From: Trueperaceae bacterium
GTDB lineage: Bacteria > Deinococcota > Deinococci > Deinococcales > Trueperaceae
DNA length: 20,913 nucleotides
NCBI GenBank assembly: GCA_035703635.1
Contig: DASSXV010000031.1
Coordinates: 1-20,913 of the forward strand
Reading direction: 5' to 3'
Shown: in pieces, positions 1,730-10,075 of the stretch
How the letters are laid out: every line of letters starts with the position of its first letter
Position numbering within the stretch: position 1 is the first letter of the stretch
Notes under the pieces: model-generated
The model's input: only the letters and a program-made list of their open reading frames with translations
What the model was told of the DNA's origin: nothing
Databases searched by the model: none
Made by a program: the position numbers and the translations under genes

Positions 1730-1766
1730 ACTATGCCGCTACTGCGGTGCTATAGTGCCCGGCAGC

Positions 1767-1808
1767 ATGGCGCAGCGAATGATGCACTCCAGCCCTGTGA
1801 ACGACTGA
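1767..1808 (+). CDS. Putative metG leader peptide MAQRMMHSSPVND
   Basis: ATG GCG CAG CGA ATG ATG CAC TCC AGC CCT GTG AAC GAC TGA, starting 10 nt after an extended -10 (TG-c-TATAGT, 1748-1756). Contains tandem Met codons and overlaps the antiterminator 5' arm. Confidence 0.65.
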   Translation: MAQRMMHSSPVND

Positions 1809-1829
1809 TCTGCCAGGTCGGTCGAGTCA

Positions 1830-1864
1830 GGGCGCCGTGCAGCTTGAGCGGCGCCTACTTTTTT
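1830..1864 (+). terminator. Intrinsic terminator (attenuator) in the metG leader
   Basis: Stem GGCGCCG (1831-1837)/CGGCGCC (1849-1855) plus a G-U pair, followed by ACTTTTTT. It lies between the putative promoter and the metG RBS. Confidence 0.75.
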
Positions 1865-1925
1865 GGCCCTAAGCGCCGGCCGCCATCAGCGGGTGACCGC
1901 AGCTGCTACTCGGAGGAAACGCGAG

Positions 1926-3971
1926 ATGGATAGCGACACTTTGATCAACCGCCTGGTCGTCGAAGAGCCAGAGACCGACCACTCCCTCGCCGGGGCCGAG
2001 GCCACCGCGGTTGCCGACCCGAACGCTTGGGCGGAGCCCGCGCCAGCGGAAGCGCGCGAGCGCGGCACCTACTACGCCACCACGCCGATCTTCTACGTGA
2101 ACGCCGCCCCGCACATCGGCCATGCGTACACGACCATCCTCGTCGACGTCGTCACGCGCTTCCACCGTTTGAAGGGCGACGACACCTACTTTCTGACGGG
2201 CACGGACGAACACGGCGAGAAGATCCAGAAGGCCGCCGAAGCTCACGGTAAGTCGCCGCAGGAGTACGCCGACGAGGTCAGCGCAGAGTTCCGCTCGACG
2301 TGGGACCGCCTCGGCATCCGCTACGACGACTTCATCCGCACGACGGAGCCGCGTCACCGCCAGGTGGTCGAGAAAGTACTGCAGAACGTGTACGACAAGG
2401 GCGACATCGTCTTCGGCGAGTACTCCGGTCTCTACTGCGTGAAGTGCGAGCGCTACTACACGGAGAAGGAGCTCGTAGACGGCAAGTGCCCGCAGCACGA
2501 GATCGAGTTGGAGTTCCGCACCGAGGCCAACTACTTCTTCCGCATGGAGAAGTACCGCCTGTGGCTGCGCGACCTGCTGACCGAGCAGCCGGACCTCATC
2601 CGGCCCGAGCGCTACCGCAACGAGGTCCTAGCCATGCTGCGCGAACCGATCGGCGACCTCTCCATCAGCCGGCCGCGCAGCCGCGTGCCTTGGGGGATTC
2701 CGCTCCCTTGGGACGACGAGCACGTGACCTACGTGTGGTTCGACGCGCTCATCAACTACTACTCGGCGCTGGAGAGCAAGGGCCTGACGGAGCGCTTCTG
2801 GCCGCACGTCGAGCACTTCATCGCGAAAGACATCGTCAAACCGCACGGCCTGTTCTGGCCGATCATGCTCAAGGCCGCCGGCATTCCAATCTTCAAGCAC
2901 CTGAACGTGCACGGTTACTGGTTGATCGACGACCGCAAGATCAGCAAGTCGCTCGGCAACGCCGTCAAGCCACTGGACTTGCAGCGCAAGTACGGCAACG
3001 ACGCTTTCCGCTACTTCCTCATGCGCGACATGCCGTTCGGCCTCGACTCGAGTTTCAACGAGCTGGCCCTTGCAGAGCGCATCAACGCGGACCTCGCTAA
3101 CGACTTGGGTAACCTGCTCAACCGCACGCTCGGCATGCTCGGCCGTTACCGCGACGGCGTCGTGCCGGCCGCGCGCCAACTCGAGAGCGTAGACCAAGAG
3201 TTGATCGACACCTTCTTGGCTTTGGCTCCGACGGCCACGCGCTACTTCGGTGCGTTGCAGTTCGACCGCGCCCTCGAGAGCGTCATGGACGCGGTGCGCA
3301 AGGCGAACAAGTACATCGCAGACACGAAGCCGTGGGAACTAGCGCGCAGCGAGGAGACGTCAGGGCGGCTCGACACCGTCCTCAACACCTTGATCGAGGC
3401 GTTGCGCTGCGCGAGCATCGTGCTAGACCCGGTCATCCCTGGCAAGGCGCACGAGCTGCGCAAACAGTTAGGCGTGCGCAACGCGCCTTACGACCTGAAC
3501 GCCGCCAGCGAGTGGGGCTTGGTTCCTGCCGGGACCGTCACGCAGCCCGGCGAGCCGCTCTTCCCGCGCATCGACCTAGCCGCGTTGGCGGCCGAGATCG
3601 AGGCTGCAGCTCAGCCGCCCGCCGCACAGCCGCTCGAGCACAAGCCGGAGATTGAGTACGCGGACTTCGGGAAGCTCGAACTGCGCGTGGTGACGGTCGA
3701 GAAGGCCGAGCAGCACCCTAACGCCGACAAGCTCCTGGTGCTCACGGTGCGCATGGGCCCAGAGACGCGCACGATCGTGAGCGGCATCAAGGAGCATTAC
3801 GACCCAGCCGCCCTCGTCGGCAAGCGCCTGGTAGCCGTGGCCAACCTCAAACCAGTCAAGCTCCGCGGCATCGTCAGCCAAGGCATGATCCTCTCGGGCG
3901 AGGGCCCGGACGGCACCCTCGGCCTGATCAGCCCCGAGCGGGATCTGCCTGATGGGAGCGAGGTGCGCTAG
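1926..3971 (+). CDS. metG: Methionine--tRNA ligase with C-terminal tRNA-binding (Trbp111-like) domain
   Basis: YYATTPIFYVNAAPHIGHAY (HIGH), GTDEHG, CVKC...CPQH knuckle, YVWFDAL, KISKSLGN (KMSKS variant) and a C-terminal HPNADKLL...RTIVSGI...NLKPVKLRGIVSQGMIL domain. Start moved to ATG 1926 because GGAGGA lies at 1912-1917. Confidence 0.97.
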   Translation: MDSDTLINRLVVEEPETDHSLAGAEATAVADPNAWAEPAPAEARERGTYYATTPIFYVNAAPHIGHAYTTILVDVVTRFHRLKGDDTYFLTGTDEHGEKIQKAAEAHGKSPQEYADEVSAEFRSTWDRLGIRYDDFIRTTEPRHRQVVEKVLQNVYDKGDIVFGEYSGLYCVKCERYYTEKELVDGKCPQHEIELEFRTEANYFFRMEKYRLWLRDLLTEQPDLIRPERYRNEVLAMLREPIGDLSISRPRSRVPWGIPLPWDDEHVTYVWFDALINYYSALESKGLTERFWPHVEHFIAKDIVKPHGLFWPIMLKAAGIPIFKHLNVHGYWLIDDRKISKSLGNAVKPLDLQRKYGNDAFRYFLMRDMPFGLDSSFNELALAERINADLANDLGNLLNRTLGMLGRYRDGVVPAARQLESVDQELIDTFLALAPTATRYFGALQFDRALESVMDAVRKANKYIADTKPWELARSEETSGRLDTVLNTLIEALRCASIVLDPVIPGKAHELRKQLGVRNAPYDLNAASEWGLVPAGTVTQPGEPLFPRIDLAALAAEIEAAAQPPAAQPLEHKPEIEYADFGKLELRVVTVEKAEQHPNADKLLVLTVRMGPETRTIVSGIKEHYDPAALVGKRLVAVANLKPVKLRGIVSQGMILSGEGPDGTLGLISPERDLPDGSEVR

Positions 3972-9925: not shown

Positions 9926-10075
9926 CTAACCCCTTCAGGGCAGGGTGAGATTCCCGACCGGCGGTGAAGGGCGCGAAGCACAGCAAGCGCCTTAGCCCGC
10001 GACGCTCACTACGGTGAGCTTGAACCGGTGATATTCCGGTGCCGACGGTAACAGTCCGGATGAGAGAAGGAGGTG
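9926..10075 (+). promoter_or_regulatory. FMN riboswitch (RFN element)
   Basis: CTTCAGGGCAGGGTGAGATTCCCGACCGGCGGT...AGCCCGCGA...CCGGTGATATTCCGGTGCCGACGGTAACAGTCCGGATGAGAGAAG matches the RFN consensus. It lies directly upstream of the rib operon, with P1 CCTTC/GAAGG. Confidence 0.96.

Follow-up and report, generated by a model that had tools for sequence, protein, structure and literature searches.

Upstream of metG, the gene for methionine--tRNA ligase (MetRS), a Trueperaceae bacterium carries what is very probably a ribosome-dependent transcription attenuator. The element lies at positions 1748-1864 of contig DASSXV010000031.1 (assembly GCA_035703635.1), of which we analysed positions 1 to 20,913 of the forward strand, a stretch of 20,913 nt that we call the window. 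It consists of a promoter-like sequence, a 13-codon upstream open reading frame (uORF) with two adjacent internal Met codons, and two alternative hairpins, an antiterminator and an intrinsic terminator. A first-pass annotation of the window had proposed a leader-peptide attenuator of metG at this place, and the proposal is supported by the conservation of the uORF and its Met codons, by covariation in the helices and by the linkage of the whole arrangement to metG. Because it is conserved across relatives, we regard the arrangement as more than a product of chance.

The metG leader of the window

Segment 1730-1925 is the gap between a DsbA/FrnE-like gene and metG. The features of this segment and of the two genes that border it are the following.

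1748-1756, + strand: extended -10 TGcTATAGT (TGCTATAGT), hexamer at 1751-1756, without a recognisable -35; putative promoter (sequence)
1767-1808, + strand: leader uORF of 13 codons plus TGA, encoding MAQRMMHSSPVND; stop codon at 1806-1808 (sequence)
1776-1784, + strand: putative regulatory codons CGA-AUG-AUG (Arg4-Met5-Met6), CGA at 1776-1778 and ATG ATG at 1779-1784
1792-1833, + strand: predicted antiterminator hairpin, outer stem 1792-1797/1828-1833 and inner stem 1802-1811/1815-1824 (folding)
1830-1864, + strand: predicted intrinsic terminator, stem 1830-1838/1848-1856 and T-run 1859-1864 (folding)
1912-1916, + strand: metG Shine-Dalgarno sequence GGAGG, 9 nt before the ATG at 1926 (sequence)
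1926-3971, + strand: metG, methionine--tRNA ligase of 681 aa (NCBIfam NF008900, 829.6 bits against a cut-off of 598)
1013-1729, + strand: DsbA/FrnE-like gene, outside the element and given for context only (Pfam DSBA PF01323, E 8.5e-47)

The extended -10 and the uORF with its tandem ATG codons are present just as they had first been annotated. So is the outer stem of the long hairpin, while the inner stem turned out to be one pair longer than described (1802-1811/1815-1824 rather than 1802-1810/1816-1824). Folding also confirmed that the terminator at 1830-1856, with its U-run, overlaps the 3' arm of that hairpin: nucleotides 1830-1833 are common to both and make up the bottom four pairs of the terminator, beside the U-run. 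The uORF ATG lies 10 nt after the -10, and inspection of the sequence upstream of the uORF at 1767 revealed no Shine-Dalgarno sequence. The first bases of the two Met codons are 13 and 10 nt upstream of the antiterminator 5' arm (1792), and the uORF stop codon falls inside the antiterminator inner stem.

Conservation and covariation in Trueperaceae

We found metG in 41 genomes of the order, the window's own included, and obtained usable upstream sequence from 39; one genome without a metG match and one cut contig were left out of the upstream set. A screen for a -10-like hexamer, a start codon 4-12 nt further on, a frame of 5-30 codons with an internal Met, and a hairpin with a T-run returned a Met-containing uORF with a terminator in 32 of the 39 regions. 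Since a screen that requires Met is circular, it was repeated without that requirement. Candidates were then seen in 30 regions, and in all 30 of these a Met-containing frame was the sole candidate or one of the candidates. Two more regions, from Deinococcaceae, have a Met-containing frame and lack a T-run by the rule of the screen.

A covariance model built from 20 Trueperaceae sequences matched the window's own genome exactly once, at 1748-1866 of the window (E 5e-25). Across the family it gave 74 matches among 79 sources with metG loci, all of them upstream of metG; as some genomes are present in two collections, the 74 matches amount to 64 distinct sequences. An internal Met codon occurs in every one of these 64 leaders; 47 have Met at codon 5 and 45 at codon 6. 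The uORF is 13 codons long in 53 of 64 even though the length of the adjoining hairpin varies freely, and its stop codon occupies the same aligned position whether it is TGA (42 leaders), TAA (12) or TAG (10). In four of the 64 rows the uORF is longer and extends upstream past the beginning of the model alignment; for these an internal ATG was taken as the start. The string TGCTATA[ACG]T is near-invariant in the family alignment, and in the window's genus it is followed by the uORF start at a distance of 9-11 nt. The inner hairpin is free to vary in both sequence and length, and the peptide is poorly conserved beyond R-M-(M) and a Pro codon located in the stem. The alignment of metG upstream regions that the first-pass annotation had called for has in this way yielded a conserved Met uORF and covarying stems.

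Both alternative helices keep their pairing through compensatory changes. In the 64 distinct sequences, the outer helix of the antiterminator is paired in 92.6% of 379 cells, and the terminator in 95.4% of 570 cells, although these counts are biased towards pairing by the fitting of the alignment to the model structure, a point against the attenuator reading. The outer helix has 12 double-change cells, mainly from U-A to C-G, and one change from C-G to U-A; the terminator has 40 double-change cells, spread over six of its nine pairs. Shuffled controls for the outer helix averaged 89.5% paired, none of 500 reaching the observed value, and slid registers gave 18-65%. In an independent MAFFT alignment of 20 sequences the outer helix was 93.3% and the terminator 97.2% paired. 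The inner hairpin was misaligned by MAFFT (63.8% paired), and its support comes from per-sequence folds only.

Two loci of another family in the order (L024 and L025, genomes G026 and G034) lack the leader. In its place, directly before a GTG start codon, is a long GC-rich hairpin into which the metG Shine-Dalgarno sequence falls, and the metG match of these loci contains one in-frame TAG.

Folding of the leader and a model for its action

Region 1790-1835 folds into a 6-pair outer stem around a 10-pair inner stem at -25.5 kcal/mol (z -4.31), and none of 200 shuffles was as good. The 9-pair stem of region 1826-1866 folds at -18.5 kcal/mol (z -2.45), with 6 of 200 shuffles as good. When 32 leaders from five families were folded individually, the terminator 5' arm in every case paired with C-rich sequence upstream of it, where the uORF ends.

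The ribosome was mimicked by forbidding pairing up to 7 nt past the first base of the A-site codon, a spacing that is a rule of thumb for the mRNA entry channel. With a ribosome at the stop codon (nucleotides up to 1813 held single-stranded) the full terminator formed in the window leader, as it did in 29 of 31 parsable leaders. For untranslated RNA, the window leader reached -47.4 kcal/mol without the terminator and about -38 to -39 kcal/mol with it; the terminator was absent from the minimum free energy (MFE) fold of free RNA in 27 of the 31. With a ribosome on either Met codon, the best fold of the window leader combined the antiterminator with a truncated 5-pair upper stem that ends 6 nt short of the U-run (-33.8 kcal/mol), compared with -32.3 kcal/mol for the best fold with a full terminator. 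Across the set, 20 of 31 leaders had at least one Met codon at which a stalled ribosome kept the terminator from being complete. The ribosome-operated switch between exclusive structures that had been proposed at the outset is thus upheld in constrained folding for termination at the stop codon, and antitermination by a Met stall would be only weakly favoured. As far as we can tell these predicted energies are new, namely that untranslated RNA would be strongly antiterminated and that the Met-stalled state would lie near balance.

We suggest that the element works as follows. Transcription would start a few bases past the extended -10, placing the mRNA 5' end at the uORF start codon or 2-4 nt before it. 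A ribosome that translates the 13-codon leader through to the stop at 1806-1808 would cover the antiterminator 5' arms (1792-1811); nucleotides 1830-1833 would then be free, the terminator (1830-1856 plus U-run) would form and transcription would end before metG. If instead the ribosome waits for Met-tRNA at codons 5 and 6 (1779-1784), or if initiation fails altogether, the antiterminator would form first and deprive the terminator of its bottom four pairs, leaving RNA polymerase to read on into metG. Low MetRS output would in this way raise metG transcription. The transcription start, translation of the uORF, the stall and the direction of regulation are what we infer from this layout. On the energies, the firm part of the model would be its two ends, with translation to the stop leading to termination and lack of translation to read-through. 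Read-through on a Met stall fits the geometry of the window leader and would be only weakly favoured by thermodynamics.

Two further pairings were tried and rejected. A closing helix between 1767-1773 and the terminator 5' arm at 1831-1837 was 89% paired in 20 sequences, with no double change and with 500 of 500 shuffles equal to it; its appearance is due to the palindromic GGCGCC. The long terminator loop seen in the window's genus was considered as a partner of the 5' part of the uORF, and cognate duplexes (mean -11.0 kcal/mol) had no advantage over non-cognate duplexes (mean -11.5 kcal/mol; permutation p 0.85, or 0.99 for the loop by itself), with a z-score of about 0 relative to shuffled loops. 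One leader of the same genus (L012, genome G016) has an extra GC-rich hairpin between antiterminator and terminator, making it 145 nt long compared with the usual ~120, and the terminator is present in its free-RNA fold.

Putative leaders in other families and in the same genome

The Trueperaceae covariance model found little outside its family: one weak match in 82 Deinococcaceae, none in 48 Thermaceae and none in the eight genomes of a third family. The other families were therefore probed by a direct search for uORFs upstream of metG, with no Met requirement. A promoter-linked short frame was seen in 27 of 30 Deinococcaceae metG loci, with an internal Met in 26, and in 29 of 30 Thermaceae loci, with an internal Met in 29. 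Typical peptides in these two families are MTITFTVMMRMPPRS, MISWRMPHPPLIP, VVGRFTRMMRMPRR and MKGMPRR. The -10 and the uORF start are 5-8 nt apart (mostly 6-7), which is the spacing of leaderless transcripts. To judge from these frames, a putative Met leader upstream of metG is spread across the phylum Deinococcota, and this distribution is a new observation.

In one species the leader has been predicted before. The species is Deinococcus deserti, whose transcription starts were mapped by De Groot et al. (2014, Genome Biol Evol, PMC4007540); in the part of the report available, they listed 14 putative leader peptides from leaderless transcripts before synthetase and amino-acid genes. Among them is a metG leader, Deide_09379, with the peptide MMFRFLSKMRMLRCS and a transcription start site (TSS) at the A of its ATG, for which attenuation was proposed. 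The likeness to the window leader is close, with the same phylum, the same gene, a short Met-containing peptide whose internal M-R-M resembles the R-M-M of the window, a 5' untranslated region that is absent or, in the window leader, probably 2-4 nt long, and proposed transcription attenuation. Moreover, just as the D. deserti leader is one of 14, the window's genome has the same layout at pheS, ilvB, leuC and leuS. As far as that part of the report extends, the two cases differ in family (Deinococcaceae and Trueperaceae), in length (15 and 13 codons) and in the distance from -10 to ATG (~6 nt and 9-11 nt). What that part provides is the peptide and the TSS; it describes neither hairpins nor conservation and reports no functional test. 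The first-pass annotation had called a Met-tRNA sensor of this kind unusual and possibly unreported. Unusual it is, but in Deinococcota it had already been predicted, in D. deserti (PMC4007540); the kind is in print for a related family, and the Trueperaceae element is a further case.

In the window's own genome, a -10, a start codon 7-8 nt further on, a short ORF and a hairpin with a T-run were also seen, as candidate leaders, directly upstream of four other genes, each identified by NCBIfam.

L044 (G000:C29): pheS leader, peptide MRSPLASQPFTR
L045 (G000:C41): ilvB leader, peptide MTVSRVGATISWGLITSSWVRAG
L046 (G000:C65): leuC leader, peptide MSGNALHPARRVRRRLAFIQARATVLLPRRAA
L047 (G000:C74): leuS leader, peptide MNEAPARKAATERLATRPDAPPR

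None of these four peptides contains an internal Met, so that among the five leaders found in this genome an internal Met is specific to metG.

A rare Arg codon before the putative regulatory Met

The codon in front of the regulatory Met is itself conserved. In the 32 leaders of the first set it is CGA in 24, CGG in 4, CAG in 2 and GGN in 2. Among the Deinococcaceae leaders, 20 of 26 have CGA ahead of a Met, as do 17 of 29 in Thermaceae; the 12 that remain in Thermaceae belong to the MKGM type or to a near variant of it (one has the form ...LKGM...). CGA before the regulatory Met was therefore found in most leaders, across four families. In one Trueperaceae subgroup TCG-ATG takes its place, which preserves the string CGATG in a different frame.

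CGA is a rare choice for Arg in the window's genome, with 3.9% of the Arg codons counted over 869 long ORFs; CGC accounts for 63%. The tRNA-Arg anticodons found in this genome (97.65% complete) are ACG, CCG, CCT, GCG and TCT, and no tRNA-Arg with anticodon TCG (UCG) was found at that completeness. On that ground we take CGA to be read by inosine wobble, presumably through an inosine-modified ACG tRNA. A conserved CGA-AUG dicodon, in which a rare CGA precedes the putative regulatory Met codon in most leaders, appears to be new. In yeast, according to the part of the report available, ribosomes stall, their A sites empty, at codon pairs that contain CGA (bioRxiv 10.1101/755652). By analogy, one might speculate that a CGA in the P site renders the next AUG especially sensitive to the supply of Met-tRNA.

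Weighing the attenuator against other explanations

Apart from the alignment bias noted above, several observations weigh against a leader-peptide attenuator that senses a stall at Met codons. The Met-stalled antiterminator state of the window leader is better than the terminator state by 1.5 kcal/mol only, and in 11 of 31 leaders the MFE fold keeps a full terminator at every Met-stall position, so that this step would have to depend on kinetics, with the antiterminator forming first. In the MKGM-type genus and some Deinococcaceae, the antiterminator 5' arm follows the single Met codon at a distance of 0-8 nt, which is at or past the limit of what a stalled ribosome leaves free. Folds of 1764/1767-1866 contained no anti-antiterminator of the trp 1:2 type and no pause hairpin, and so nothing of that kind to synchronise ribosome and polymerase. 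A 1:2 hairpin of that type marks the trp subtype and not all attenuators. Finally, as the -10 lies 9-11 nt before the ATG in the window's genus, the mRNA there is probably not leaderless in the strict sense but begins with 2-4 untranslated nucleotides.

Two explanations would detach the element from metG. The hairpin and U-run could be the terminator of the DsbA/FrnE-like gene, with a metG promoter further downstream and a fortuitous small ORF; the element does begin 19 nt past the stop codon of that gene, and a scan with consensus promoter and terminator rules reported neither at the element. That scan needs a -35 hexamer and a loop of 3-8 nt and missed the element because there is only an extended -10 here and a loop of 9-11 nt. 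More tellingly, a DsbA/FrnE-like homologue precedes metG only in the window's genus and in one neighbouring genus, and the leader is kept at eight metG loci without such a homologue within 1.5 kb (L013, L016, L017, L020, L021, L023, L029 and L030); in other genera and families it sits in quite different gene surroundings. Members of the genus differ in how far the -10 lies from the frnE stop, but share a constant block of -10, uORF and terminator. In some relatives the T-run and the metG start codon are ~10-20 nt apart, too close for a separate promoter to fit in between, and metG there would be transcribed by read-through only. As this comparison ties the element to metG across contexts, and as the frame, length and Met codons of the uORF are conserved, we consider a frnE terminator ruled out for practical purposes, with hardly any probability left to it. 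An independent small gene that merely lies beside metG, whether for a functional 13-aa peptide or a small RNA, would account for the element having a promoter-like -10 and a terminator of its own, and attenuator RNAs and leader peptides are described as acting in trans in Sinorhizobium meliloti (rnTrpL/peTrpL; PMC6614838 and PMC7298713, in the parts available). However, the element always lies directly upstream of metG on the same strand, in differing genomic contexts, its peptide is poorly conserved outside the parts named above, and several relatives' metG have no room for another promoter; we give this idea next to no credence.

The remaining explanations accept control of metG and question what is sensed. 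Ribosome loading on the (near-)leaderless 5' AUG could decide the outcome: untranslated RNA would read through, any translated RNA would terminate, and the internal Met codons would be minor or a second layer. Initiation needs formylmethionyl initiator tRNA (fMet-tRNAfMet), likewise a MetRS product, and the lack of a Shine-Dalgarno sequence, the 5-8 nt spacing in the other families and the D. deserti TSS at the ATG all point to leaderless initiation. Sensing at initiation would also suit the energies, since untranslated RNA favours antitermination by ~8-9 kcal/mol and lacks the terminator in 27 of 31 leaders while the Met-stalled state is near balance, and it would suit the MKGM-type leaders, where the Met codon is very near the antiterminator arm. 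What it leaves unexplained is the retention of an internal Met in 64/64 Trueperaceae, 26/27 Deinococcaceae and 29/29 Thermaceae leaders. The pheS, ilvB, leuC and leuS leaders of the same genome do without one, and in D. deserti the leaders of other synthetases have residues cognate to those enzymes instead. We therefore think initiation sensing by itself improbable. In principle a leaderless Met leader could sense both tRNAs, because MetRS charges initiator and elongator tRNA, and a joint reading can be framed as a two-stage gauge of MetRS output ancestral to Deinococcota. In its first stage, ribosome loading on the (near-)leaderless 5' AUG would report fMet-tRNAfMet, untranslated RNA being locked in read-through by the ~8-9 kcal/mol; in the second, elongation across the Met codon or codons would report Met-tRNAMet. 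The rare and nearly invariant CGA would serve as a sensitiser built into the leader, an inosine:A wobble in the P site slowing AUG decoding and perhaps making the dependence on Met-tRNA steep. We put this combination forward tentatively, as a rather unlikely possibility. A ribosome-independent RNA switch would be something else again, binding methionine or S-adenosylmethionine (SAM), uncharged tRNA-Met or MetRS itself, with the uORF incidental to a GCGAAUG motif. The CGAAUG hexamer is indeed conserved at the nucleotide level beyond what an Arg-Met dipeptide needs, and synthetase genes are autoregulated by their own product in other bacteria (E. coli thrS). Against such a switch, a scan of 1600-2100 with Rfam at E up to 10 gave no match to the T-box or to any SAM class, as the first-pass annotation had wished to see checked, and returned chance-level matches only (Sphinx_2, snoZ206, P10); at the gathering threshold no T-box or SAM class was matched anywhere in the window either. 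A conserved ligand pocket is lacking, given the free variation of the inner hairpin. What is conserved obeys the logic of codons, with a fixed 13-codon frame and the three stop codons swapping at one position, and the start codon keeps its promoter-linked position. A switch of this sort is in our view very improbable.

Relation to known systems

The preferred reading, a leader-peptide attenuator of metG, has its best-known counterparts in the enterobacterial attenuators of trp, his, leu, thr, ilv and pheST (Yanofsky 1981, cited in PMC4007540). Like these, the metG leader has a short ORF with cognate codons, exclusive antiterminator and terminator structures, and a stop codon placed so that the terminating ribosome masks the antiterminator arm; pheST illustrates that synthetase genes can be under this form of control. 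Unlike them, it has no Shine-Dalgarno sequence, would initiate on a (near-)leaderless mRNA, has one or two regulatory codons and would sense methionine. It also differs from the trp leader in having no segment 1 to pair with segment 2, and its untranslated RNA is therefore predicted to read through, whereas the trp leader super-attenuates.

Mycobacteria have leaderless polycysteine short ORFs that are Cys-responsive attenuators (bioRxiv 10.1101/834739). These too are leaderless short ORFs rich in one amino acid that control downstream genes by its supply, in a different phylum and with a different amino acid and different target genes; the comparison rests on the brief description available of that work. 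T-box and SAM riboswitches share with the metG leader the upstream position and the decision between terminator and antiterminator. They differ from it in that the present element matches neither in Rfam, is ~100 nt long, and is conserved along its reading frame and not in a ligand or tRNA core.

For most bacteria studied, control of the essential gene metG either runs through T-boxes or has not been worked out. A literature search in which subscription-only papers were not covered found no leader-peptide attenuator for methionine or metG outside Deinococcota. In the parts available, Seliverstov et al. (2005, PMC1262725) reported that the methionine operons of Actinobacteria are not preceded by any conserved regulatory RNA structure, and Korolev et al. 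(2016, PMC4833913) did not mention metG. It appears that a methionine-reading leader-peptide attenuator is rare, the D. deserti prediction being the only one in print as far as our search reached. The present comparison widens that one-species prediction to a conserved Deinococcota family that has no Rfam model, supplies covariation support for two competing helices and flags the CGA-AUG codon context as testable. Its practical value is modest, and nothing known is overturned.

Additional features of the window

The metG ORF starts ~47 codons before its match to the MetRS model (1926-2066 precede it; the NF008900 match begins at residue 47). This N-terminal extension is poorly conserved, and in relatives the match often begins at residues 8-48. 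Elsewhere in the window, a flavin mononucleotide (FMN) riboswitch (RF00050) lies at 9927-10075 on the + strand, with 104.5 bits against a gathering threshold of 66.2 (E 1.1e-23), and it is the sole Rfam match in the whole window at that threshold.

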